A stretch of DNA of 36,367 nt from NCBI GenBank assembly GCA_945877855.1, contig CAMDWA010000028.1:1-36367 (forward strand). The letters run 5' to 3'. Position 1 is the stretch's first letter; the number at the start of each line of letters is the position of its first letter. Of this stretch, positions 1,427-30,634 are shown in pieces. Made by a program: the position numbers and the translations under genes. The DNA is from Thermoflexus hugenholtzii JAD2 (lineage in GTDB: Bacteria > Chloroflexota > Anaerolineae > J036 > Brachytrichaceae). The notes below the pieces were generated by a model. The model did not search any database and was not told the DNA's origin. It was given only the letters and a program-made list of their open reading frames with translations.

Positions 1427-1634
1427 TAAAGTATAAATTCTCATAACCTATCTCTTACACAGCAATCATAACACTAGCATCCAAATAAGTAGGGAAGTGA
1501 TGTGACCCCCTAAAAATGGAATCACTGTTTGCGAAATTTCACAGCCTGTTTGTGCTTAAACTAAATAGGGCTAAGGCGACTCAAACAGACATCGAATATC
1601 CATAATTAGAGCAAGTTTCAATATAGACAAAAGT

Positions 1635-4478
1635 TTACCGCACCTCAATCACCCCCGCCCACCAACCTTGACCCCCCACCAACAAACGCTCGCCCGAATA
1701 AGGCAAATAGAAGCCGACACGCAACTGATACTGACCGAGCGGCACATTGTCCAAGCCAAGCATGCGCTCGTCACGCACCCATTCACCCGCCGCCCAGCGC
1801 GAGGTGGGATAAGCCCCATTGAGCGGCTGCCCATCGTTTTGCGCCACCAAGCGCCCCGTTTTGGGGTCGATGAGATGCACAAACACCACATAATCTTGCT
1901 CGATGGGCTGCAACGAGTGCCAATGGAGTGCAAGTTGCAGGTTGCAAGTTGTGGCTTTCATCTCACACGCTGTCATATCAAACCCCGCCAATTCGATCAC
2001 GCCGCCCATAACCGCACCCACCCGCACCTGCGGCGAGGCCACCGCAAAGTTGCGCGGCGGGGCATTCACCGTAATCGCGCCCAAGTCGGCCAACAGCTTG
2101 CCATCGGCCAACACCTGCAATTGATAATCGCCAGCAGCCAAATTGCGCGGTAAGCGTAATTGATAACGGTCGAGCAACGCCAAGTTGGGCGGCCATTCGG
2201 CAAAGGGCAAACGGGCGCGGGCGGGTGCGCCATCAAACAAAGTAACAAGGCTTGGCCCAAGCAACTGCACCTTGAATGTGGCATTTGGCATGGGTTGGGC
2301 TGCCCCTTGCCAACACAGGTCTAGATTCAGCAACGCCCCCGTGTTTAAAGTGCGCTCGCGCAATTGCCACGCGCTTAAGGTTGCACCATTGGGCAAATGG
2401 GTTTGGGTGCTGGTGTAGGGGGCAGCGCTGCAAATGGGCACGGCGGCTGTCACAGGGGGGCGGGGCAATGGGGCGCTCAGTTTGCCAAACGGCAACACCA
2501 GCTCTAGCCCAGCAAATTGCTCATTGGGGCCAACCCGCGGCGGCACATCTTTGGTGTTTGGGTTAAAAAAGCTGATGCCGATTTGATAATCGCCAACCGG
2601 TGGGGTTCCGGTCGGCGGCGGCAATTCGATCTGGTCAAACACAATCTCACCCACCGTCCAATCGGCGGTGGGGTAATGAAATGGGTTGGCACGCACCCAT
2701 TCGCCCGACTCGGCATGAAACAGCCGCGCTACCAACTGCAACGGCTGCCCAATCTGGGCCATCGGCTCCCAGATCACGGTTGCCACACACGGCCCTTGCA
2801 CATGACATTCGCCAAATTTTTGAGCATCGCGCACTTTGACGATGTGGGCAAAATCGGCGGCGGGCGCGGGCAATTGGGCGCGAATGGCCGCGATATCGGC
2901 CTCGCGTAGCCGCATCACACGGGCGGCAACTACGCCATCGGGCGCGGTCAAGAGCGTATCGGTTTGCCAACGGCTGGTGATGAGCGTTGAATAGGGGGCG
3001 GGCGGGTCAACGAAGGTGGGCAAATAATAGAGCGCGTCGCCCTTGGGCGGCAGCACCAGCGTCGCCCCGCCGGTCAGCCATTTCACCTGCCCAAAACGCT
3101 GGGTCAGCGCCGCCACGGTCGGCGATTGATAATGGATGGAGGCGACATACAGCGTGGTGTTTTGCACATCGGCAACACTGCGGCGCTGCAAATCTTGCCC
3201 AATCACAGTCATATTGCCATCGGTGGCAACGAATAAATCGGGCGAGTGATTCCAGCGTGAGTAGCGGTTCCATGCTAGCAAACCAAGCATCGCCGCTGCG
3301 CACATCAACCCAATTTGCAGCCAGCGCCGCGAAATAGTGTGGGGGGGTAACAAACTGTGCAACCCATTAAACAGCGTCACACCGCCATAACCAATCACCG
3401 GTGCGAGAAAGGTCCAAACACCGATCATGCGAATATTGCTAGGGATGATGTCTTTGACCGCCAAGGCGCTGGGCACAAGCATGATTACTAGCCCGGACAA
3501 CAATAACGCCCGCGTGGCATAAACCTCCGAGGTCTTAAAGACCTCGGAGGTTTTTTGTGGGATGAGTAGCGTGATTACCCCAATTAACCCAAACAATGAG
3601 AAAACTTCGCCACTCAGCGGCAGGCCCGGCAGGTTATAGCGCACATTAGGGTCGCCGAAGTTGGGCAAAAACAAGCCGAGCCAACATTGCCACCATGCCC
3701 ACGCCACCTCGCGCCAGCCCGCACTACCACTCACTTGGTCGAGCCGCGCCGAAAAAATATCGGGGTTTTGAATAAAAAACCAGCCCAATGGCGCAAACAC
3801 TATTGCCGCCACAAGCCCCATCAACCCCACCCGTGCCAAACGCTGACCACACCCACGCCGGGCAGACACAGCCAACCACACCAATAACGCCAAGGCGACC
3901 GGAATAGGAAACAAACGCGCCGCCAAATAAGTATAGGCGACCAAACCGAGAAAAACACCCGCCGCCGCAAACCAACGCCAGCGTCCCGTATTCATGCCGC
4001 GCCATAGCGCCATAAGCACCAACGCCTGCACCACCGGTTGTGAGCCAGCGCGATAGCCATAACGCGCAAAAATGAGCGGCGCAATGCTGACAGCCAGCCA
4101 AAACGCGGCGATCAGGGCGATGGCATTGCGCTGAGGGTGCGCGGCAAACAACGAGCGCGTCATTGAAAAAGTGGCGGCGATGCCGATGAGGCTGAGCATG
4201 GCCGAAGCAAGGCGCGTACCCCAAGTGGCGTTATCGGCCATCATCAACCAAGGCGCGGCCCAATATAAAAAGCCCACCTCACGCCCGACAAAGGCCCGCA
4301 CAAAAATAGGCCGGTCTCCGTTATAGGCAATATCGCGGATGTTTAACACGTAGGCGGCTTCGTCGTAATGCAGCCCATGGGCAAGGGTAGTGATATCGGT
4401 CAGGCGCAATAACGCCGCCACCAGTAAAATCAAGGTGGCAAGCCATAAGGTGGTGCGGGCATCAGGTCGGCGCAACAT
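1635..4478 (-). CDS. GT-C superfamily membrane glycosyltransferase (ArnT/PMT_2-like, GT39/GT83-like) with a large C-terminal extracytoplasmic domain
   Basis: 947 aa with about 12-13 predicted TM helices in the N-terminal 450 aa, an HYDEAAY (DE) motif in the first loop, and a long non-membrane C-terminal domain. Contains a 33-bp in-frame palindrome at 3521-3553. Confidence 0.6.
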   Translation of the reverse strand: MLRRPDARTTLWLATLILLVAALLRLTDITTLAHGLHYDEAAYVLNIRDIAYNGDRPIFVRAFVGREVGFLYWAAPWLMMADNATWGTRLASAMLSLIGIAATFSMTRSLFAAHPQRNAIALIAAFWLAVSIAPLIFARYGYRAGSQPVVQALVLMALWRGMNTGRWRWFAAAGVFLGLVAYTYLAARLFPIPVALALLVWLAVSARRGCGQRLARVGLMGLVAAIVFAPLGWFFIQNPDIFSARLDQVSGSAGWREVAWAWWQCWLGLFLPNFGDPNVRYNLPGLPLSGEVFSLFGLIGVITLLIPQKTSEVFKTSEVYATRALLLSGLVIMLVPSALAVKDIIPSNIRMIGVWTFLAPVIGYGGVTLFNGLHSLLPPHTISRRWLQIGLMCAAAMLGLLAWNRYSRWNHSPDLFVATDGNMTVIGQDLQRRSVADVQNTTLYVASIHYQSPTVAALTQRFGQVKWLTGGATLVLPPKGDALYYLPTFVDPPAPYSTLITSRWQTDTLLTAPDGVVAARVMRLREADIAAIRAQLPAPAADFAHIVKVRDAQKFGECHVQGPCVATVIWEPMAQIGQPLQLVARLFHAESGEWVRANPFHYPTADWTVGEIVFDQIELPPPTGTPPVGDYQIGISFFNPNTKDVPPRVGPNEQFAGLELVLPFGKLSAPLPRPPVTAAVPICSAAPYTSTQTHLPNGATLSAWQLRERTLNTGALLNLDLCWQGAAQPMPNATFKVQLLGPSLVTLFDGAPARARLPFAEWPPNLALLDRYQLRLPRNLAAGDYQLQVLADGKLLADLGAITVNAPPRNFAVASPQVRVGAVMGGVIELAGFDMTACEMKATTCNLQLALHWHSLQPIEQDYVVFVHLIDPKTGRLVAQNDGQPLNGAYPTSRWAAGEWVRDERMLGLDNVPLGQYQLRVGFYLPYSGERLLVGGQGWWAGVIEVR

Positions 4479-4502: not shown

Positions 4503-4625
4503 GGGAGCCGTGAGCCATGAGCTTTGAGCTTTGAGCCTTGAGCCTTGAGCTATGAGTCACAAGTCACGGCTCATGGCTCATGGCTCATAGCTCATGGCTC
4601 CAAAGCTCATGCCTCACGGCTCAAA
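4503..4625. repeat. Quasi-palindromic heptamer array (TGAGCNN x7, then its complement NNGCTCA x8) in the divergent promoter region
   Basis: Left arm tgagcca/tgagctt/tgagctt/tgagcct/tgagcct/tgagcta; the right arm is the complementary set cggctca/tggctca/tggctca/tagctca and so on. It sits between the GT gene start (4478, minus) and the CMD start (4642, plus). Confidence 0.75.
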
Positions 4626-6718: not shown

Positions 6719-8704
6719 ATGCAAATTTCACTTGTTCCTTTATTATTGCTTGTGCTGCTATTTTTGATGATCCTCTTGATCATCGTGTTGTTAGCGGGCA
6801 TACGCATCATTCCCAACAATCGGGTTGGGATTGTCGAAAAAAAGTTTAGCGGTAAAGGCTCGGTTAAATCTGGGTTTATTGCCCTCAACGGCGAAGCTGG
6901 TTTTCAGCCACAGGTATTGCGCGGTGGCATTCATTATCTGATGCCATTTCAATACTCGGTGCATGTCGTGCCATTGGTCACGATTCCCCAAGGCAAAATC
7001 GGCTATATATTTGCGCGTGACGGGTTAATGTTAAACGCCACCCAAAGTTTGGCCTCCAACTTAACCGCCAGCGATTTTCAAGATGTGGTGGGCTTTTTGA
7101 AGAATGACGGCCAACGTGGCCCACAACGCCAAATTCTGCGCGAAGGCACTTATGCCATCAACTTAGTGCAATTTATTGTCATTACCGAAGAGCGTGTGTT
7201 TTATCTGCCCATTAACCGTGATGAAACGCAGATGATTCAAAATATGGCGACGGTCATCGGTGAACGCAAAGGCTTTACCCCGCTGGTGATCAAAGATTCT
7301 GACGACCTCATTGGTATTATTACAGTGCATGATGGCCCATCGTTGCCCCAAGGCGAGATTATTGCGCCGGTGCGTGGCGACGATGCCAATAACCGCGAAA
7401 CGTATCACAACAATTTTCAAGATGCCGACCGCTTTTTGCTGGCGGGTGGGATGCGCGGCAGACAATTACAGGTGATGGTTGAAGGCACTTATTACATCAA
7501 CCGCCTATTTGCGACGGTTGAAATGGTGAAAAAGACCATTATTGATGTGGGTAATGTCGGCGTGATCATCTTTTACACCGGTAATGTTGGCGAAGACATT
7601 TCGGGGGCCGACTATAAACATGGTGAATTGGTGCGCAAAGGCTATCGCGGGGTATGGGAAGAGCCGATGCTACCCGGCAAATATGCGCTAAATACCTATG
7701 CGGCACGGGTGGTGATTGTGCCAACCACTAACTTTATTCTCAAGTGGAACCGCAGCGAAGTGGGCGCCCATCGTTTTGACGAAAACTTGTCAGAGGTGTC
7801 GCTCATTACCAAAGACGCTTTCGAGCCGCTTTTGCCGTTGTCAGTGGTGGTGCATATCGATTATCGCAAAGCCCCGTTGGTCATTCAACGCTTTGGCGAT
7901 GTAAAACGCTTGGTTGAACAAACGCTTGACCCAATGGTAGCGGCCTATTTTAAGAATGTGGGCCAAACCCGCACCCTGATTCAGCTCATTCAGGAGCGCA
8001 GCGATATTCAAAAGATATCGAGCACCGAGATGAAAGAGAAGTTTACCCACTATAACCTTGAGCTAGAAGAGGTGCTCATTGGCACACCGACAGCAGCCAA
8101 GGGCGACCTCCAAATCGAAACCATTTTGACGCAATTGCGCCAGCGCCAAATTGCGCAAGAAAAGATCGAGACGTATCAACGTCAAGAACAGGCGGCGGTG
8201 CAAGAACGAGTGTTACGCGAAGCCGAATCGCGGGCCGAGCAACAAACCCGCATCACCGAGTCGGAATTGAACATTATGGTGCAAGGCAACCAAGGCAAGG
8301 CCGATTATCAACGCGCCGTGCAACAATCGGCCCAAATTCGTATTTTGGCCGAGGCCGAAGCCGAAAAAGCCGCCAGAATTGGGATTGGGCAAGCCTTGGC
8401 GATTGATGAACAAGTGCGGGCCTATGGTGGGCCACAATATCAAGTGACACAACAAGTGATGAATCGCTTTGCCGAAGCGATTGAGGCGGCTGGGGTCGAT
8501 GTTGTGCCACGCATCTCGATCAGCGGTGGCGCTGGTGGGGGGGCTGGCAGCAATAATTTGATGGAAGGGTTGATGGCGATGTTGTTGTCGGAGCGCATGG
8601 GGGTGACGTTAAATACGCCCAATACCCCGCGCAGTCCCGAAGCCGAAGCCATGCGCAAACAGATTATGGAAAGTTTGGCGAAAAAGTCTGAGGCATCTTC
8701 TTAA
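6719..8704 (+). CDS. SPFH/band-7 flotillin-like protein (YqiK/FloT-like)
   Basis: N-terminal TM helix, a PHB/SPFH core, and a long E/A/Q-rich coiled coil (EAEAEKAARIG...) typical of flotillins. Confidence 0.6.
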   Translation: MQISLVPLLLLVLLFLMILLIIVLLAGIRIIPNNRVGIVEKKFSGKGSVKSGFIALNGEAGFQPQVLRGGIHYLMPFQYSVHVVPLVTIPQGKIGYIFARDGLMLNATQSLASNLTASDFQDVVGFLKNDGQRGPQRQILREGTYAINLVQFIVITEERVFYLPINRDETQMIQNMATVIGERKGFTPLVIKDSDDLIGIITVHDGPSLPQGEIIAPVRGDDANNRETYHNNFQDADRFLLAGGMRGRQLQVMVEGTYYINRLFATVEMVKKTIIDVGNVGVIIFYTGNVGEDISGADYKHGELVRKGYRGVWEEPMLPGKYALNTYAARVVIVPTTNFILKWNRSEVGAHRFDENLSEVSLITKDAFEPLLPLSVVVHIDYRKAPLVIQRFGDVKRLVEQTLDPMVAAYFKNVGQTRTLIQLIQERSDIQKISSTEMKEKFTHYNLELEEVLIGTPTAAKGDLQIETILTQLRQRQIAQEKIETYQRQEQAAVQERVLREAESRAEQQTRITESELNIMVQGNQGKADYQRAVQQSAQIRILAEAEAEKAARIGIGQALAIDEQVRAYGGPQYQVTQQVMNRFAEAIEAAGVDVVPRISISGGAGGGAGSNNLMEGLMAMLLSERMGVTLNTPNTPRSPEAEAMRKQIMESLAKKSEASS

Positions 8705-8734
8705 TATACCAAGAAAAGATAAAAATTAAGAAAA

Positions 8735-8782
8735 CGCCGATTTCACACTCCCTCCGCAATCGGAGAGAGTGTGAAATCGGCG
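8735..8782. repeat. REP-like palindromic hairpin element (family 1) 3' of the flotillin gene
   Basis: cgccgatttcacactccctccg-caat-cggagagagtgtgaaatcggcg. Conserved termini GCCGATTTCAC/GTGAAATCGGC with a variable but self-complementary CTCCC/GGGAG core. Confidence 0.75.
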
Positions 8783-8801
8783 AAATTTGTTTTCATGGCG
8801 G

Positions 8802-8985
8802 CTGTTTGTCGCAAGGCTGTTCAAAAGTCAGCACGCTACTTAACCCGTCATCTCCGCGAACGCGGAGATCCATAACGTGTCATGGCAAAATTGCGGAAAA
8901 CCAGTCAACCTATGCCTGTCTGGTTATAGATTCCAGCTTTCGCGGGAATGACGAGGCGACTTTTGAACAGCCTTGCTGTTTGTCG
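8802..8985. mobile_element. MITE-like non-autonomous element (164 bp) with 18-bp perfect terminal inverted repeats and a 10-bp target-site duplication
   Basis: TIR-L caaggctgttcaaaagtc (8812-8829) is the exact reverse complement of TIR-R gacttttgaacagccttg (8958-8975). Both are flanked by the direct repeat ctgtttgtcg (8802-8811 and 8976-8985). There is an internal 9-bp-stem hairpin atctccgcg-aa-cgcggagat. No transposase ORF is present. Confidence 0.7.
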
Positions 8986-9040
8986 AGCGCAGCTTGACAA
9001 GCGAATTATTGTTATTGGCAAAGGTATCATACTCAGCCTG

Positions 9041-10012
9041 ATGTCTAATGCAACCAACCTAACACTACGCGCCTATCGTGGTCTTGTCGATCATCCCGCG
9101 ATGATCTCACTTACGAATGCCTGCCACCAACACGAAGGGGTAGAAGAATTTGAAACGGCAGAAAGTCTGCAACATTTTTTACATTTTCCGCACAGCGATC
9201 CTGAGTATGACATCATTGTCGCCGAAAATGCTGAGGGGATCATCGGTTATGCCCATACCTTTTGGCGAAAAAATCGCGATAACAGTATCGTGCATTATGT
9301 TTTTGTCTTTGTCCATCCCGATCAACAACGCCAAGGCGTGGGCACAAGGTTATTCGCCCAACTCCAACACCGCATTGCGGCGCTGACACAACAAACCGAA
9401 CCCAACAGCCCCCATCTATTACTCACTTATGTGCAAGAAAAAGAAGCGGCAGCCCAAGCCTTTGTAAACAAACACGGTTTTGGCGTTGCACGCTATTTAT
9501 ATGAGATGGTATGCCCGCTTGAACATTTGCCAAATTGTGATGATTACCCATTACCTGCCCATATTGAATTGCGACCAGCCTTGCCAGCCCATGACCGCGC
9601 CATTTACAATGCCCGCCGCGAAGCCTTTCTCGATCATTGGGGGTCGGCGCTACCCAGCGAAGAAGAATTTCAGGCATGGATAAACGATGAACAGCGCGAC
9701 CCAAGTAGGTATGTGATTGCCTGGGCCAATGACCAAGTGGCGGGCATGGTGCTCAATGAAATTAACCACAGTGAAAATGAAGCCAGTGGGCGCAAACGCG
9801 GCTATACCGACCCAATTGCGGTGCGGCGGCCTTGGCGCAAACAAGGCTTGGCAACGGCCATGCTGGTGCGCAGTTTGCACCTATTGCGTCAACATGGCAT
9901 GAGTGAGGCTGCACTGAGCGTTGACACCGAAAACCCGAGTGGGGCATTACGAATTTATGAACGCTTGGGGTTTAAAGCGGTAAAAAAGATCGTCGCTTAT
10001 CAAAAACTGTAA
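9041..10012 (+). CDS. Tandem-GNAT N-acetyltransferase, MshD (mycothiol synthase)-like architecture
   Basis: Two GNAT acetyl-CoA binding cores: VFVHPDQQRQGVGTRLF and IAVRRPWRKQGLATAMLVRSL...RLGF. The track ORF (8948) extends upstream into the MITE, so the start was set at MSNATNL; the start is uncertain. Confidence 0.6.
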   Translation: MSNATNLTLRAYRGLVDHPAMISLTNACHQHEGVEEFETAESLQHFLHFPHSDPEYDIIVAENAEGIIGYAHTFWRKNRDNSIVHYVFVFVHPDQQRQGVGTRLFAQLQHRIAALTQQTEPNSPHLLLTYVQEKEAAAQAFVNKHGFGVARYLYEMVCPLEHLPNCDDYPLPAHIELRPALPAHDRAIYNARREAFLDHWGSALPSEEEFQAWINDEQRDPSRYVIAWANDQVAGMVLNEINHSENEASGRKRGYTDPIAVRRPWRKQGLATAMLVRSLHLLRQHGMSEAALSVDTENPSGALRIYERLGFKAVKKIVAYQKL

Positions 10013-10015
10013 TAT

Positions 10016-13869: not shown

Positions 13870-14840
13870 TCACCCCCCTGATGGGTAGCACGGCACTGGC
13901 TTGTTGGATAGTGCACAACAACCTCACAAGACCAGTCCGCGTTGACGCAAATGCAGCACTCACCCTGCTATCAATTGAGGCGGTGGGCGCGTTTGTCTGG
14001 CTTGCTTGCGCGGCTCGTGCGGGGGCAGATGCCCAGCAACTGACAGTTGCTGGGCATCTACTCACCCTTAATTGATGGCAAACGTAACACTCACCACGCC
14101 ATCAATTGAGGCAGTGATGGGGTTAGTCTGGCGTGCTTGCGCGGCTCATGCGGGTGCAGATGCACCGCACCTCGCAGGTGCGGCGCATCTACTCACCCCA
14201 CGTTGGTGGCAAATGCAACGCTCACCCCGCCCTCAATTGAGGCAGTGATGGGGTTAGTCTGGCTTGCTTGCGCGGCTCGTCCGGATGCAGATGCACCGCA
14301 CCTCGCAGGTGCGGCGCATCTACTCACCCTTAAATTGATGGCAATGCAACGCTTACCCCGCCCTCAATTGAGGCAGTGGGCGCGGTCATTTGGCTTGCTT
14401 GCGCGGCTCGTGCGGGGGCAGATGCCCAGCAACTGACAGTTGCTGGGCATCTACTCACCCTTAATTGATGGCAAACGTAACACTAACCCCGCCATCAATT
14501 GAGGCAGTGACGGGGTTAGTCTAGCTTGCTTGCGCGGCTCATGCGGGTGCAGATGCGCCGCACCTGCGAGGTGCGGCGCATCTACTCACCCTTAAATTGG
14601 TGGCAAATGTAACACTCACCCTGCCCTCAATTGAGGCGGTGACGGGGTTAGTCTGGCGTGCTTGCGCGGCTCGTGCAGGTGCAGATGCCCAGCAACTGGC
14701 AGTTGCTGGGCATCTACTCACCCTTAAATTGATGGCAAATGCAACGCTCACCCCACCCTCAATTAAGGCGGTGGGCGCGGTCGTTTGGCTGGCTTGCGCG
14801 GATCGTGCGGGTGCAGATGCGCCGCACCTGCGAAGGGCGA
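13870..14840. repeat. Tandem array of about 7.4 units of ~131 bp (130-133 bp), each with two conserved hairpins and two alternating variants
   Basis: Unit starts (motif caattgagg) at 13971, 14104, 14234, 14365, 14496, 14628 and 14760. Variant A hairpin is gatgcccagcaactg-aca-cagttgctgggcatc; variant B hairpin is gatgcgccgcacct-gcg-aggtgcggcgcatc. A second hairpin, aattgatggc...gcc(a/c)tcaatt, spans the unit junctions. Confidence 0.85.
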
Positions 14841-14968: not shown

Positions 14969-17839
14969 TTAACCGGAGGCCCGAGCGGAGAATCGGGGCG
15001 CACTACTCACCAAACGAAAACCGTCGTTGCTGTCACGGATGTCTACATGGGAGTCGTCACGGACCGCCGCCCGCGCATCCGTATCATAGTTATACCACGA
15101 CCCGCCGCGCACGACCCGCTTTTTTATATTTTCTATACTTGGGTCTTCACGTTCCAAATTCGCCTGATATGGATACGCTAAGTAAGCACTGCTCGTCCAT
15201 TCCCACACATTACCGCATAAATCGCTAATGCCTTCAGGCGTTTCGCCCTCGGCAAAGAGACCAATCGGGGTGGTGCGACGAATATGACGCTCGAACGTAT
15301 TGCATTGACTGGCTTCAAATTTTTCGCCATACGCATAGGCACGCGCCCGCCCGCGCCGGTCAGGTTGACCCCGCGCTGCGGCCTCCCACTGCGCTTCGCT
15401 CGGCAAAACATAGCGGCTGCCAATTTGGGCACTCAGCCACAAACCATAGGCCCGCGCCTCATGCCAACATACCCCCACCACCGGCTGGCTGGGCTGGTTA
15501 AAGGCGCTGTCTTCCCAAAACCGCGGCTGCAGCGGCACCTCACCCATCGGAAAGGTTTTAGCCAACCACGCTTCAAAGGCCTCATCACTCCAATTGCGAA
15601 GCGTATGCCAAGCTCGCGCTTGGGTTGAGGTGCAGCGTTGTTGCGCCAATAAATGGTCGATATAGTCCTCCTCCCAGCTTTTTATAGCTTGTCTGCTGCT
15701 TCGCCAGCCCTCGCGCTGGCCTGCCACCGCACCTTCGGGGGTGCGAAAATAGCTTGCGGCTGGCGTATCCCACCAACGGGCATCGCTATAACCACCCGCA
15801 CGCATAAAACAAGCAAATTCGGCATTGGTGACCGGAAACTTACCCATGCGAAATGCATCCAACTTGACGCGGTGCACATGCTTAGCATTATCATACGACT
15901 GGTCTTGGTCGCCCAGCACATAGTCACCGGCCTCAATGGCGATCATGGGCGGCAACAGATATTCATGCCCCAGCTTGCCCATGCGCCGCTCAAAACGCGG
16001 GTCGCCCAGCCCCCCCAACGCCTCACCGGCGGCAATCCGCGCCCGTAGGTCGGCGTTGCGGTCTTGGCTGCGGGCAATCAAGCCTTGCTGCAACTCGTGC
16101 AACAAGGTGGTCGCCAGCTTGGGCTTGACCTGCGCCGCCACCTCGGCCGCCAACGGCAAGTTGAGCGGCATCAGGCTGGCAATCAGCGCATTCGGCTGCT
16201 CACTCAGTTGGGCCGCCAATTTCAGCGTTTCGGCCCAGCCGCTGCGATCGAGCGGCGGCAATGGCTCATAATCTTGGGCGGTTGCCAGCCACTGCGCCAA
16301 ACTCGGCTGCACCGCCTCGGCCTGCCACGCAATCGCCGCCAGCGGCGCATCAAATTGGCGGGCCGCACGGCGGGCCGCAAAAAATTCTTGCAGCAATTGA
16401 TGATAAAACCAAAACTCCTCGCGTTGGCGATCTTCATCTAGCACCGTCAGGGCCACGCCTGCCGTCAGCACCTCGCGCGCCCGTGGGTGTTGCAACACGT
16501 CGCAGGCGCGGGCTTCGTCCAACGTCACCCGCCCACCCGCGCCAGCCAGCCCTTGGCATTGCATGGCATAGGCCAATTCGCTTAGCTTGGGCATGAGCAA
16601 CCCGCGTTCGGGCAAACGCAGGTTGGTTTGGGTATCAACACGGGTGACATCTTCACGGTCACGCAGGTCGAATAGCGCTTCGTCCAGCAGCAGTGCATTC
16701 TTGCCCTCCACCTCGCGGCGGGCGGCGCGCCGCACCAGCTCGGCAAATAACTCGGCGCGGCTAGCCGGAATTTGCCCGGCCCGCTCATTCACCAAATCGC
16801 ACAATATTTTGGCGAAATAAGGCGTGGCATATAACGCAAGTTGCTCAGGCTGGTCCTTGATCTTGCCCCATATCGCAGCGGCGTGTTTGGGCGTATGTTG
16901 CTGCAAAAACGCCTCAAGCTGAACCGCATTGAGCACCTTCAGCGTGATCTGGCGCACATCCACATCGTCTTTCACGCTTAGGGTTTGGCTATAGTCGAGG
17001 CTGCGGCAGGTAAACACGGCGCGATTGCCCGATGGCAGGTCATCGCGCAAAAAATCGCGCCAGCGTTCCACCTGTTTGCCATATACCGCCCCGTTTGGGT
17101 GTGGCATCTCGTTCAGTGCATCCAACAACAGCAACACACACCCTTGCGCCAAAAAATAATCGAGCGGCGGCAGGGTGACATGAAAGCGCTTCAGCGTTTG
17201 CTGCCATTGTTGCGCCAGCCACTCGGCTGGGTCGGGCGCGTCGGGCGTGTATTTGTTGAGTGTAACAAACAATGTCACACTCAGCTGGGGTTGGTCTGCC
17301 GCCAAATACTCGGTCGCGCTTTGCCATTGCAGGCGGCGCAGCAAGGTGGTTTTGCCGCCGCCCGGCACCCCCAGCAGCACCAGCGACGGGTCGGTGATTT
17401 CCGCATCCGCCAGAACCTCGCTCAGGTCTTGGTAATCGTGGTCGCGCTCGGCAAAGCTCAGGCTGGTGTCGGTTTTTTGGCGGTCGAGCAGCCGCATCCG
17501 CACAAAACGGGTGTCAATTTGGCGCTTTTGGGCCAAATCTTTCGCCACTGCGCGATGATATGCCGTCAATGCGGCTTGGGTGGCGGCGGGGTCGGGCGCG
17601 GGTTGGGCATCGGCAAAGCTGATATTCGGGCGGGCCTCACGCACGGCTTGCAGTAATTTGGCATAATCGCCACGCGATTCGCAATGCTTAATCAAGTTCA
17701 TGGCGAACTTGGGTTGGGTATTGCGCTCAAAATCCTCGTCTCCAATCCCCAACTCAAAACACAACAGTTCGAGTTCGTCTGTTTTGAAATGCGCCTTCAA
17801 TGCCGCATAAAGTTGTTGCTGGGTTGGGGTATGGGGCAT
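14969..17839 (-). CDS. STAND NTPase: N-terminal death-like/effector-associated helical domain, NACHT P-loop NTPase, HEAT-like repeats and a C-terminal FGE-sulfatase (SUMF1-like, C-type-lectin fold) domain
   Basis: Walker A LLGVPGGGKTTLL, a NACHT-type Walker B LLLLDALNEM, and a HEAT-like AAGEALGGLGDPR. FGE motifs: HRVKLDAFRMGKFPVTNAEF, GNVWEWTSS, RVVRGGSW...GFRLV. The N-terminus carries LxxALKAHFxxxELELLCFELGIGDEDF. Confidence 0.8.
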   Translation of the reverse strand: MPHTPTQQQLYAALKAHFKTDELELLCFELGIGDEDFERNTQPKFAMNLIKHCESRGDYAKLLQAVREARPNISFADAQPAPDPAATQAALTAYHRAVAKDLAQKRQIDTRFVRMRLLDRQKTDTSLSFAERDHDYQDLSEVLADAEITDPSLVLLGVPGGGKTTLLRRLQWQSATEYLAADQPQLSVTLFVTLNKYTPDAPDPAEWLAQQWQQTLKRFHVTLPPLDYFLAQGCVLLLLDALNEMPHPNGAVYGKQVERWRDFLRDDLPSGNRAVFTCRSLDYSQTLSVKDDVDVRQITLKVLNAVQLEAFLQQHTPKHAAAIWGKIKDQPEQLALYATPYFAKILCDLVNERAGQIPASRAELFAELVRRAARREVEGKNALLLDEALFDLRDREDVTRVDTQTNLRLPERGLLMPKLSELAYAMQCQGLAGAGGRVTLDEARACDVLQHPRAREVLTAGVALTVLDEDRQREEFWFYHQLLQEFFAARRAARQFDAPLAAIAWQAEAVQPSLAQWLATAQDYEPLPPLDRSGWAETLKLAAQLSEQPNALIASLMPLNLPLAAEVAAQVKPKLATTLLHELQQGLIARSQDRNADLRARIAAGEALGGLGDPRFERRMGKLGHEYLLPPMIAIEAGDYVLGDQDQSYDNAKHVHRVKLDAFRMGKFPVTNAEFACFMRAGGYSDARWWDTPAASYFRTPEGAVAGQREGWRSSRQAIKSWEEDYIDHLLAQQRCTSTQARAWHTLRNWSDEAFEAWLAKTFPMGEVPLQPRFWEDSAFNQPSQPVVGVCWHEARAYGLWLSAQIGSRYVLPSEAQWEAAARGQPDRRGRARAYAYGEKFEASQCNTFERHIRRTTPIGLFAEGETPEGISDLCGNVWEWTSSAYLAYPYQANLEREDPSIENIKKRVVRGGSWYNYDTDARAAVRDDSHVDIRDSNDGFRLVSSAPRFSARASG
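14995..15112 (-). other. Putative DGR variable region (VR) at the C-terminus of the FGE domain
   Basis: RGGSW-YNYDTDARAAVRDDSHVDIRDSNDGFRLV. The scaffold positions match the canonical FGE-type template pattern RGGSWNNN..AR.A.R......GFR, and the variable codons are mostly NNC/NNT (tat aac tat gat...gac tcc cat gta gac atc cgt gac agc aac gac), as expected for AAC/AAT-derived mutagenesis. Confidence 0.5.
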
Positions 17840-25074: not shown

Positions 25075-25998
25075 ATGTTCGTTATCGAAACCCAACACCT
25101 GCAAAAACAATTTGGCAATAAGCTAGCCGTTGCCGATCTTACGCTCACGGTCAACTCAGGCGAGGTGTTTGGGTTTCTGGGGCCAAATGGGGCAGGTAAA
25201 AGCACCTCAATTAAAATGTTGTTGGGGTTAGTCAAACCCAGTGCGGGCAACTGTTGGGTATTGGGGTTGCCGCCCGGCAATGTGCAAGCTCGCCGCAAAA
25301 TTGGCTTTTTGCCCGAGCATTTTCGTTTTCACGATTGGCTGACCGGACGCGAGTTTCTGCATTTTCACGGGCGGTTATATGGCATGTCGGGCCAAGCACT
25401 CAAACAACGGATCGAGACATTGCTGGCGCGGGTCGCCTTGTTAGAAGCGGGCGACCGCAAATTGCAACAATATAGCAAAGGCATGTTGCAGCGCATCGGG
25501 TTGGCAATGGCCTTGCTCAATCACCCCCAAATTGTCTTTTTAGACGAGCCAACCTCAGGGCTTGACCCATTAGGCCGCCTGCTGGTGCGCGATATCATCA
25601 CGGAAATACGCAACGAAGGCACTACTGTCTTTCTAAATTCGCACTTGCTCAGCGAAATCGAAGTGACGTGTAACCGCGTGGTTTTTCTCAAGCGCGGCAA
25701 TGTGGTGCGCGAAATCAACTTAAAAGACAATGAAATTCATATCAACGAACTCGAACTAAAATTGGGGCCGGTCGATGACAGCATTTTGCAAGGGTTAGCC
25801 CAATTTGGCAGCAATGCCCATCGAGATGGCGACCTCATTCGCATGAATATTCAAGACGAAGCCAGCCTGCCACAACTGGCCCGTTGGCTGGTCGGCCAAG
25901 GTTGCGAAATTTATCGCCTCGCTGCCCATCACCCATCGCTTGAACAACTGTTTGTTGAAACCATGACCGAAGAAAATAAGTTAACCATTGATGGTTAA
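25075..25998 (+). CDS. ABC transporter ATP-binding protein (ABC-2 / exporter type)
   Basis: Walker A GPNGAGKST, signature YSKGMLQRIGLA, and Walker B IVFLDEPTSGLD. Confidence 0.85.
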   Translation: MFVIETQHLQKQFGNKLAVADLTLTVNSGEVFGFLGPNGAGKSTSIKMLLGLVKPSAGNCWVLGLPPGNVQARRKIGFLPEHFRFHDWLTGREFLHFHGRLYGMSGQALKQRIETLLARVALLEAGDRKLQQYSKGMLQRIGLAMALLNHPQIVFLDEPTSGLDPLGRLLVRDIITEIRNEGTTVFLNSHLLSEIEVTCNRVVFLKRGNVVREINLKDNEIHINELELKLGPVDDSILQGLAQFGSNAHRDGDLIRMNIQDEASLPQLARWLVGQGCEIYRLAAHHPSLEQLFVETMTEENKLTIDG

Positions 25999-26078
25999 TG
26001 ATTAATGGTCAATGATTAATGGTTAATGATTAATGGTTAATGATTAATGATTAATGATTAATGATTAATGATTAATGG
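25995..26078. repeat. Heptanucleotide microsatellite TTAATGR x12 spanning the ABC ATPase stop codon and the permease start codon
   Basis: Units counted directly as ttaatga, ttaatgg, tcaatga, ttaatgg, ttaatga, ttaatgg, ttaatga x5, ttaatgg. The ATPase TAA (25996-98) is in unit 1 and the candidate permease ATG (26068) is in unit 11. Confidence 0.85.
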
Positions 26079-26946
26079 TAGTTTTGCTGCGTTAAAAATG
26101 ATGTTTACGATCGCCCATCTCACCTTTCATGAAGCCCTGCGCAAGCGGGTATTACTGGCGGCCATTGTGCTGGGGGCACTTTTTCTCATCGTCTTTGGCG
26201 TTGGCATTTATTTTATTAACGATGCGGTCATCCAACAAGAGTTACGATCAGCGCCGTCGGCCATTCGTGCCCAAAGCAACCGCCTCGCCTATAATTTTTT
26301 GGCGATGGCCGGGCTATACACGGTGAATTTTTTGCTGGTCATGATGGCAACCCTGTTACCCGTTGACACCCTTTCGGGCGAAATAAGCTCTGGCTCAATT
26401 CAGTCATTGGTGGTTAAACCGGTGCGGCGCTCGCAAATTGTGCTAGGCAAATGGCTGGGCTTTGCGTTCATTATGCTGATTTATGCCAGCTGCATGATTG
26501 GCGGCATCGTTGGCCTGGTGGCAATCATGACCAGCTATGACTTGCCCAATATTCACATCGCCCTGCCGATTATGTTACTCGAAACCTTGCTATTGCTCAC
26601 CTTGTCGATTGCAGGCGGCACGCGATTTACCACCTTAACCAATGGCGTTTTTGTGTTTGGTATGTTTGGCTTGGCCTTTATCGGCGGCTGGGTCGAGCAA
26701 GTCGGCGGTTTACTTGGCAATCAGGCCGCGCAAAATATCGGGGTCATCACCAGCCTCATCATGCCTAGCGAAGCGCTGTGGCGGCTAGCCGCGCATTATA
26801 TGCAACCCGATGGCATAAGCGCACTCAACATCACCCCATTTTCAAGCACCATTGTGCCCAGCCCCAATATGTTATTGTGGGCCATTGGCTACACCCTTAT
26901 TACGTTACTGCTCGCCATCCGCCACTTCTCGCAAAGAGATTTATAA
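26068..26946 (+). CDS. ABC-2 family transporter permease
   Basis: 292 aa with about 6 TM helices, located downstream of the ABC ATPase. The start is ambiguous (26068 inside the heptamer repeat, or ATG 26098). Confidence 0.65.
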   Translation: MINGSFAALKMMFTIAHLTFHEALRKRVLLAAIVLGALFLIVFGVGIYFINDAVIQQELRSAPSAIRAQSNRLAYNFLAMAGLYTVNFLLVMMATLLPVDTLSGEISSGSIQSLVVKPVRRSQIVLGKWLGFAFIMLIYASCMIGGIVGLVAIMTSYDLPNIHIALPIMLLETLLLLTLSIAGGTRFTTLTNGVFVFGMFGLAFIGGWVEQVGGLLGNQAAQNIGVITSLIMPSEALWRLAAHYMQPDGISALNITPFSSTIVPSPNMLLWAIGYTLITLLLAIRHFSQRDL

Positions 26947-30580: not shown

Positions 30581-30634
30581 CGCCAATTTCACGATCCCCA
30601 CTCAGCATAGCTAAGTGGGGATCGTGAAATCGAC
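30581..30634. repeat. REP-like palindromic hairpin element (family 1 variant) 3' of the DUF2177 gene
   Basis: gccaatttcac-gatccccact-cagcatagc-taagtggggatc-gtgaaatcgac. Confidence 0.7.

Follow-up and report, generated by a model that had tools for sequence, protein, structure and literature searches.

What is the palindromic sequence that lies between a Band_7/SPFH gene and a GNAT acetyltransferase gene, how did it come to be there, and what are the hairpins that it carries? We addressed these questions in a 36,367-nt stretch of Thermoflexus hugenholtzii JAD2 DNA (hereafter the window), together with loci fetched from other genomes. A first-pass annotation, made from the letters alone, had described the sequence as a MITE of 164 bp with perfect 18-bp TIRs, and direct reading of the sequence at 8812-8975 bore out both lengths.

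Structure of the element

The features of the locus are as follows.

Stop at 8704: Band_7/SPFH gene, 661 aa, upstream flank
8735-8782, plus strand: hairpin with 22-bp arms past the Band_7/SPFH gene; terminator-like, a separate palindrome family outside the MITE
8802-8811, no strand: left target-site duplication CTGTTTGTCG, or GCTGTTTGTCG if counted from 8801, as in relatives
8812-8829, plus strand: left TIR CAAGGCTGTTCAAAAGTC, conserved across 39 aligned copies
8846-8872, plus strand: arm-1 hairpin with CGTC head, stem ATCTCCGC/GCGGAGAT, loop GAAC and tail CCA; a CGTC-REP-like NTS variant
8873-8926, no strand: variable central spacer between the hairpins, the least conserved part of the alignment, which defines subfamilies
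8926-8953, minus strand: arm-2 hairpin CGTCATTCCCGCGAAAGCTGGAATCTAT, which fits the published Ssn-related motif
8948-9040, plus strand: spurious in-frame extension of the GNAT gene, starting at an ATG inside the MITE
8958-8975, minus strand: right TIR, exact reverse complement of the left one
8976-8985, no strand: right target-site duplication CTGTTTGTCG, one G short compared with all relatives
9041-10012, plus strand: two-domain GNAT acetyltransferase, 323 aa, with its true start at 9041

A repeat search returned an 11-nt direct repeat at 8801-8811 and 8975-8985, in which the right copy begins with the G that ends the TIR. Counting the G/C at 8811/8976 extends the TIR to 19 nt. The internal 9-bp hairpin of the first-pass annotation is real (8850-8858/8861-8869); what had been missed was a partner hairpin in the opposite arm (8930-8949) and the fact that the two arms together make the element, from end to end, an imperfect palindrome. 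Its predicted fold was very stable both as RNA (-71.4 kcal/mol, z = -8.6) and as DNA (-41.9 kcal/mol, z = -8.3). The element has no coding capacity, as had been claimed: the sole overlapping ORF has 63 aa and a TTG start, and the family copies differ from one another by indels. At the gathering and E-value thresholds of Rfam, zero families matched the element.

A chance inverted repeat next to a chance direct repeat would look similar, and the presence of a single copy in the 36-kb window is all that speaks for such a coincidence. However, the TIR at up to three mismatches occurred in the window only at these two sites, against 0.03 expected, and the 10-mer CTGTTTGTCG likewise only at its two sites (0.07 expected; two occurrences in 1 of 100 shuffles). 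The search for further copies by means of the TIR, which the first-pass annotation had suggested, yielded about 70 copies related to this one, in genomes of other Chloroflexota. We therefore give the coincidence no weight.

Copies in other genomes and their flanking duplications

We scanned bacterial and archaeal genomes, each the single representative of its species, for exact matches to the 18-mer TIR and obtained 79 loci. They comprised 61 contigs of the Anaerolineae MAG AQU-02, six of the Chloroflexota MAG REEB501 and two of a Thermoflexus MAG; one locus in a Ktedonobacteraceae MAG was a short look-alike, and the others were single matches in other phyla without MITE-like sequence inward of the TIR. 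Followed inward from their TIRs, the Chloroflexota loci proved to hold both arms of this MITE, of which there are several subfamilies. AQU-02 is another genome than that of the window, to which it is related (shared genes 77-89% identical), and the MITE copies were 79-95% identical to the window copy. In many of the TIR loci a contig end was only 80-160 bp away, which is the pattern that a repeat should leave when it interrupts assembly; the MITE explains contig breaks in related MAGs.

TIR pairs were searched up to 4 kb apart. We found 47, all shorter than 340 bp and nearly all 163-167 bp long. For the 44 pairs with usable flanks, the 10-nt flanks were identical in 11 and matched at 8 or more of 10 positions in 25; shuffled pairings gave about 0.1%. 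The non-matching copies mostly had 9- or 11-bp duplications instead, and one had a duplication of 19 bp; about a quarter of the copies were without a recognizable duplication. The duplicated sequences were all different and the sites unrelated. Such varied duplications of about 10 bp are the signature of transposition by cuts staggered by about 10 bp. The pair search demanded that one end or both begin with C, and this first position is C or T among the copies; those with T...A ends were overlooked, so the true copy number is higher.

A second family of about 195 bp, which we call type B (for example, L034 4363-4556), had only the TIR in common with this MITE; its interior was unrelated, and it was also flanked by duplications. 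Short derivatives likewise shared only the 18-bp ends. The association of these ends with different interiors indicates that the ends are what the enzyme recognizes.

According to the first-pass annotation, the MITE reading would fall if no other copies existed; since many do, at sites that are unrelated and have separate 9-11-bp duplications, the reading is upheld. We conclude that the sequence at 8812-8975 is very probably a non-autonomous DNA transposon moved in trans, which is the best explanation of the data in full. The family is abundant in Anaerolineae-related Chloroflexota, with dozens of copies; for the source genome itself, abundance is inferred from these relatives. As a MITE the element is ordinary and of a kind already known, and the family was not found in the searchable literature. 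This repeat family and its two sister families should be masked in Chloroflexota genomes.

History of the insertion

We fetched 14 loci of GNAT relatives. The order Band_7-MITE-GNAT was common to all syntenic relatives, whose GNAT identity to the window was 88% and 98-100%, and the orthologous insertion was present, with mutations, in 13 contigs. The insertion point is bounded on one side by the GNAT gene and on the other by the terminator-like hairpin that follows the Band_7 gene, a hairpin that showed compensatory changes in relatives. The right junction read CCTTG|GCTGTTTGTCG in all 12 relatives' contigs that reached it. Hence, the duplication was originally 11 bp long, and the window has lost one G from it. 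The 10-bp duplication of the first-pass annotation is therefore correct for the window, where both copies of CTGTTTGTCG are present, but not for the original event.

The orthologous copies are decaying. The left TIR had point mutations in two relatives (CAAAGCTG in one, CAAGTCTG in the other), a 14-bp deletion in the relative with 88% GNAT identity (L080) took half of the arm-2 hairpin, and the arm-2 stem of the window itself has a C-to-A mismatch (at 8935, where the family consensus has c). The first-pass annotation had proposed a comparison with the empty site; no empty site for this insertion was found among the fetched GNAT relatives, every syntenic one of which carries the MITE. The GNAT orthologue of AQU-02, which is 70% identical, had another synteny: 46 bp upstream of it lies a YCII gene, and the MITE is absent. 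Conversely, a MITE adjoining the uvrB orthologue of AQU-02 was missing from the window, and the spacer there could not be aligned. We conclude that insertion into GCTGTTTGTCG predates the split of the lineages now at 88-100% GNAT identity, and that the insertion is old, fixed at this site and a slowly decaying fossil.

Retention in all relatives down to 88% GNAT identity could also be taken as a sign that the element is a host module, regulatory or structural (a terminator, an insulator, an mRNA stabilizer or a small RNA), that selection keeps and whose repeat nature is secondary. Its very stable fold (z = -8.6) and its intergenic position, just past a terminator-like hairpin and 55 bp ahead of a gene start, would suit such a role. 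However, there was no Rfam match, no T-tract past the stem and no promoter-like site; the orthologous copies carry the TIR mutations, deletion and stem mismatch described above; dozens of copies occur in unrelated contexts, each with a duplication; and the AQU-02 GNAT orthologue does without the element. We regard a host module as highly improbable compared with a transposon copy that has stayed where it inserted.

Start site and promoter of the GNAT gene

The element had been placed 55 bp upstream of the GNAT gene, which is exactly its distance to the ATG at 9041. The closest GNAT homologues were 322-326 aa long and their alignment began at MSNATN, which sets the start of the gene at 9041. 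An ATG at 8948, inside the MITE, is in frame with the gene as a result of the loss of one G at the junction of the MITE and the duplication. In relatives with the same MITE, the open frame extended only 16-25 codons upstream, and gene prediction there yields a protein of 323 aa. The first-pass annotation was thus right that the long N-terminal extension is spurious, but insertion of the MITE is insufficient to create it; the one-G loss at the junction of the window is needed as well. The 354-aa ORF is an annotation artifact of the MITE plus this 1-bp deletion, which matters for annotation because it accounts for a false extension of 31 codons.

The suggestion that the MITE may supply the promoter of the GNAT gene found no support. 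A consensus scan found no sigma-70-like site in 8600-9200, the 33 nt ahead of the GNAT ATG are native DNA that is identical in the 88% relative, and the AQU-02 orthologue has no MITE. The artifactual ORF is the only demonstrable consequence of the element here; a promoter from the MITE is not supported, and no effect on GNAT expression was demonstrated.

Conserved hairpins in both arms

In the alignment of 39 copies, the TIRs and two blocks of about 28 nt were almost invariant, whereas the 15-nt linker and the 54-nt center were variable and defined the subfamilies. Each block opens with CGTC, followed by an 8-bp stem that starts with AT; the loop has 4 nt, and the tail is CCA/CTA. Arm 1 reads CGTC-ATCTCCGC-GAAC-GCGGAGAT-CCA, and arm 2, on the other strand, CGTC-ATTCCCGC-GAAM-GCGGGAAT-CTA/CCA. 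The CGTC head, both stems and the base past each palindrome were invariant or nearly so, and the two arms always differed from each other. The local hairpins were 99-100% paired (arm 1, 99% of cells), and two stem pairs had undergone G:C to U:A double changes, in 12 sequences and in 1 sequence, respectively. Pairing from arm to arm was broken by the same double changes, and two of its positions were unpaired in 39 of 39 copies. Since local pairing is kept and arm-to-arm pairing is broken, what is conserved is the stem-loop of each arm. Each arm bears an independently conserved stem-loop of the CGTC-REP/NTS type.

The CGTC-tagged REPs are defined by Di Nocera et al. (2013; PMC3733652) by an unpaired CGTC head, an 8-9-bp stem starting with AT, a 4-5-nt loop and a 3-nt tail close to CCA. 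The five phyla for which that paper gives them, Chloroflexi not being among them, are Proteobacteria, Chlorobi, Bacteroidetes, Spirochaetes and Thermotogae. It describes them chiefly as inverted dimers, often hetero-dimers, with spacers of 20-100 bp, reports no dedicated or associated transposase genes for them, and equates those of Neisseria with dRS3. Both arms of the element have the head, stem, loop and tail of this definition, and they form an inverted hetero-dimer whose 54-nt spacer falls within the 20-100-bp range. They depart from the trait of having no link to TIRs, duplications or a transposase: here the hairpins sit inside an element with both.

A related motif has been described in Neisseria, the NTS (CGTCATTCCCGCGMAVGCGGGAATCYRG), which is bound and cut by SsnA, a GIY-YIG nuclease of 94 aa, in single-stranded DNA only and on one strand (PMC11893778, from 2025). 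Homologues of ssn are often flanked by such motifs and are described mainly from Pseudomonadati; the pattern of the Ssn-related motif (SRM) is HGTCWYN(0-2)YYVSBRHN(0-5)WNVSBRGN(0-2)RNCYNB, and the criterion for an NTS is at most one mismatch (PMC11893778). Arm 2 of the window (8926-8953, minus strand) was the sole SRM match in the window, with 0.12 expected per shuffled window, and had two mismatches to the NTS. The family consensus of arm 2, CGTCATTCCCGCGAACGCGGGAATCTAT, was identical to the NTS at 27 of 28 positions and also fitted the SRM pattern, and 17 of the 39 family copies had at most one mismatch to the NTS. Arm 1 gave no SRM match and had at least five mismatches to the NTS pattern; it is a distinct variant, ATCTCC...GGAGAT. 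A BLAST search with an arm against plasmid records matched two N. gonorrhoeae chromosomes filed among them at 94% over 33 nt, each in 40 or more places; further matches were in Sphingomonads, Azospirillum and Legionella. The likeness of the hairpin to type I-E CRISPR repeats is probably no more than the generic similarity of GC hairpins.

Of the 128 hairpins of this kind in the fetched Chloroflexota loci, 104 lay at most 60 nt from a TIR. Most of the others belonged to copies cut by contig ends or to a third element type with different outer repeats, and a few were loose pattern matches or lay within a Tisiphia locus. No free-standing hairpins or clusters of them were seen in these Chloroflexota loci. 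The Tisiphia (Rickettsiaceae) locus, L027, was met by chance, and there CGTC dimers occur inside palindromic elements of about 140 bp. The likeness of our TIR to the end of the Tisiphia element, GGCAGTTTAAAAGTCGC, is too short to interpret.

The same hairpin core was also found with other outer repeats, GCAATNGCATTAAATTAAG (L070 1790-1960), and hybrids occurred in L012 and L014. In L048, an 84-bp derivative had its two hairpins fused into one chimera, which indicates that recombination happens at the hairpins. These derivatives, and the better conservation of the hairpins than of the adjoining linker, would be expected if the mobile unit were the hairpin dimer itself, either REP/REPIN/BIME-like or derived from an NTS-ssn-NTS arrangement, moved by a single-strand-specific enzyme (a RAYT-type tyrosine enzyme or an Ssn-type GIY-YIG enzyme), with the outer 18-bp palindrome as its preferred target or carrier instead of a TIR that a transposase binds. 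Published precedents point the same way: the CGTC dimers of H. neapolitanus are embedded in longer palindromes that PMC3733652 reads as targets, and NTS-ssnA-NTS has been noted as insertion-sequence-like (PMC11893778). Against this, the 9-11-bp duplications lie directly outside the 18-bp repeats and not outside the hairpins, and the same ends bound an unrelated interior with duplications in type B (L034 4363-4556). Movement of the IS200/IS605 and RAYT types leaves no duplication. Neither an "empty" copy of the outer palindrome nor, in the window and the fetched loci, a RAYT or GIY-YIG gene was seen, and neither the window nor the multi-copy ORFs of the loci included a Y1 transposase. A REPIN/RAYT system in particular was rejected, the tag being CGTC and not the GTAG typical of RAYT substrates, and duplications being present. 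Because of the duplications outside the 18-bp ends and the unrelated interiors within such ends, we consider mobility of the hairpin dimer improbable and prefer a transposon defined by its 18-bp ends.

A candidate transposase family

For such a transposon, a transposase supplied in trans must recognize the 18-bp ends YAAGGCTGTTCAAAAGTC and integrate the element through cuts staggered by 9-11 bp, since copies at unrelated sites carry their own duplications of this length. The same duplications agree with the earlier proposal of a transposase family that makes long staggered cuts. As had also been noted, no such transposase is encoded in the window: all ORFs of at least 150 aa were without a transposase domain, and the genes are ordinary chromosomal ones, such as those for RlmN, amidase, UvrB and urocanase.

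The search was extended to the fetched loci and to other sequence collections. No transposase gene was found in about 0.6 Mb of fetched loci, and when the ORFs of 120 aa or more from the 79 loci were compared with one another by BLASTP, all against all, none proved to be multi-copy. Two loci in which the MITE sequence breaks off, L039 and L045, were considered as ends of an insertion sequence and turned out to be truncated or interrupted copies. Metagenomes were scanned with YAAGGCTGTTCAAAAGTCY, that is, the TIR followed by a pyrimidine, a query that excludes the known MITE interiors because all of them continue with a purine; the 37 loci obtained were unrelated single-copy sequences, with no autonomous element among them. 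A TIR scan of viral contigs gave zero matches, and TIR BLAST against plasmids gave chance matches only. No candidate DDE transposase with a YREK motif was recovered from the fetched loci, the window, or the metagenome, viral and plasmid searches.

Among known families, ISAs1 has CAGGG ends and an 8-10-bp duplication, and the TIR may have some similarity to ISL3-like ends. Duplications of about 10 bp are a hallmark of the IS4 family, and members of its IS4Sa subgroup have CA------T ends and duplications of 8-10 bp (PMC2266710). The TIR of our element, CAAGGCTGT, agrees with the IS4Sa ends at three end positions, which is weak evidence, the more so as the first of them is C or T among the copies. 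From the duplication length and these three positions, we tentatively suggest an IS4-family-type DDE transposase, IS4Sa-like and acting in trans; we put the chance of this assignment at a little under even, with ISAs1 as the main alternative.

Possible function of the hairpins

Type B elements transpose without these hairpins, so the hairpins are not strictly needed for integration. Neither motif searches nor phmmer with E. coli YhbQ detected a GIY-YIG gene in the window and the approximately 0.6 Mb of loci. The hairpins might nevertheless serve as sites that a protein recognizes. The most plausible candidates would be a GIY-YIG nuclease of the Ssn type, which acts on single-stranded DNA, and the transposase of the element itself, if it met its substrate in a single-stranded or cruciform state; we hold this possible, though rather unlikely. 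Otherwise they would be an inherited structure of master copies or by-products of palindromy.

A more specific proposal, likewise rather unlikely, is that the NTS/CGTC hairpin, as a recognition site of an Ssn nuclease, may have spread in Chloroflexota as the payload of a DDE-type MITE. What was observed is that a hairpin of about 28 nt, nearly identical to the Neisseria NTS/dRS3 and to the CGTC repeats of Rickettsiales, occurs in a distant phylum, where it keeps a constant place within a transposon whose TIRs and duplications are clear. If the proposal were true, the Ssn-motif system would extend to Chloroflexota, outside the phyla given in PMC11893778 and PMC3733652; hitch-hiking in elements with TIRs and target-site duplications would be a concrete mechanism for the multiplication of hairpin dimers; and the hairpins would be maintained through interaction with a nuclease or transposase on single-stranded DNA. 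Were the hairpins functional, the literature on REP-like "orphan" repeats and that on Ssn nucleases would become linked. The dispersal route of orphan repeats and a possible Ssn partner in Chloroflexota are now directly testable.

Comparison with known systems

The element resembles the IS4 family in its duplication of about 10 bp and its IS4Sa-type CA------T ends. It differs in that its duplications reach 11 bp, with one of 19 bp, and the relation is one of resemblance only.

With the Correia elements of Neisseria, the Nezha elements of cyanobacteria and the Rickettsia palindromic elements it shares a length of about 100-250 bp, TIRs, a duplication, dispersed copies, the lack of coding capacity, a long-hairpin fold and a mostly intergenic position. 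The Tisiphia locus L027, with its CGTC-type dimers inside palindromic elements of about 140 bp, is a further point of likeness. Correia elements duplicate TA, whereas the duplication here is 9-11 bp. The present family also differs from all three in its Chloroflexota host, in a TIR absent from the searchable literature, and in an interior that is a hetero-dimer of CGTC/NTS-type hairpins at fixed distances from the ends.

With the CGTC-REPs, as defined in PMC3733652, and with the NTS, it shares the CGTC head, the 8-9-bp AT stem, the 4-nt loop, the CCA/CTA tail and the arrangement as an inverted dimer. The differences are that nearly all of the hairpins here lie within MITEs with TIRs and target-site duplications, and that the host phylum is Chloroflexota, which is new for such hairpins relative to the phyla given in PMC11893778 and PMC3733652. 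In structure, the interior of the element is a CGTC dimer, yet it is not a free REP.

Recent MITE insertion next to the GNAT gene

A 162-bp MITE, distinct from the main MITE of the window, was found directly after the GNAT stop codon in another genome (locus L094, 1350-1511), whose strain encodes an identical GNAT protein. This element has the TIR TCAATACCTTCGCCA and a 4-bp duplication, ATGC, and is absent from both the window (site 10013-10014) and the related locus L088. L094 and the window/L088 are a clean filled/empty pair, which shows recent MITE activity in this species.

A TIR shared with a second MITE family

Type B is a second MITE family of about 195 bp, carrying the same 18-bp TIR as type A, the family of the main MITE; its interior is unrelated and contains its own, different hairpins (GCCCGATAGGGC, GGGCGGCGGGTTTACCC). 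A 95-bp derivative also belongs to this family, and AQU-02, a related Anaerolineae MAG, has at least 10 type B ends.

Loci of type B MITEs and the 95-bp derivative
L015, 23-218
L068, 554-748
L034, 4363-4556
L077, 2606-2700

In a Ktedonobacteraceae MAG (L011, about 3220-3297), an element of roughly 76 bp has the exact TIR at its start and a degenerate TIR copy at its end (AACTTTTGGATAGTCCTGG). Being bounded in this way, the element suggests that the TIR family reaches another class of Chloroflexota.

Hybrids and fusions of the hairpin core

The hairpin-dimer core of type A was also found inside other outer repeats (GCAATNGCATTAAATTAAG), and 215-bp hybrids consist of a module with GCAATNGCATTAAATTAAG outer repeats joined to a type A element, with the junction inside a hairpin. 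The different outer repeats and these hybrids suggest recombination or insertion at the hairpins.

Loci of the core with other outer repeats and of hybrids
L070, 1790-1960
L014, 7509-7723
L012, 5645-5860

An 84-bp derivative (L048, 6662-6745), with both hairpins merged into a single chimera (ATCTCCGCG AA CGCGGGAAT), still has a flanking 9-bp duplication.

Gene-end palindromes and short repeats

Several long palindromes in the window belong to one family, with the pattern GCCGATTTCAC...CTCCC...GGGAG...GTGAAATCGGC.

Long palindromes in the window
8735-8782, just past the Band_7 stop codon
10015-10074, just past the GNAT stop codon
about 110-155
about 30590-30632

The first two look like gene-end terminator hairpins, and compensatory changes were present in the relatives' copies of these gene-end palindromes.

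A short repeat, GTGACCCCCTAAAAATGGARTCACTG, is common to the window (1497-1541) and L045, a locus from another genome (4037-4081), where its first base lies exactly at the interruption point of a MITE copy; it may be a further small mobile or palindromic element. Intergenic DNA of the window also harbors heptanucleotide tandem repeats (4505-4623, 1384-1426, and 25987-26079), for example GAGCCTT, after which comes its inverted array TCATGGC, and 13 copies of ATTAATG; similar heptamer runs flank MITEs of AQU-02.

A NACHT gene

The gene at 14969-17839 (minus strand), adjoined by 6.7 tandem copies of a 131-nt unit (13947-14830, 83% matches), encodes a 955-aa protein with EAD7 (effector-associated), NACHT NTPase, and FGE-sulfatase domains. 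Judged from its domains, this gene could have a defence or signalling role; the architecture of the protein is NLR-like.
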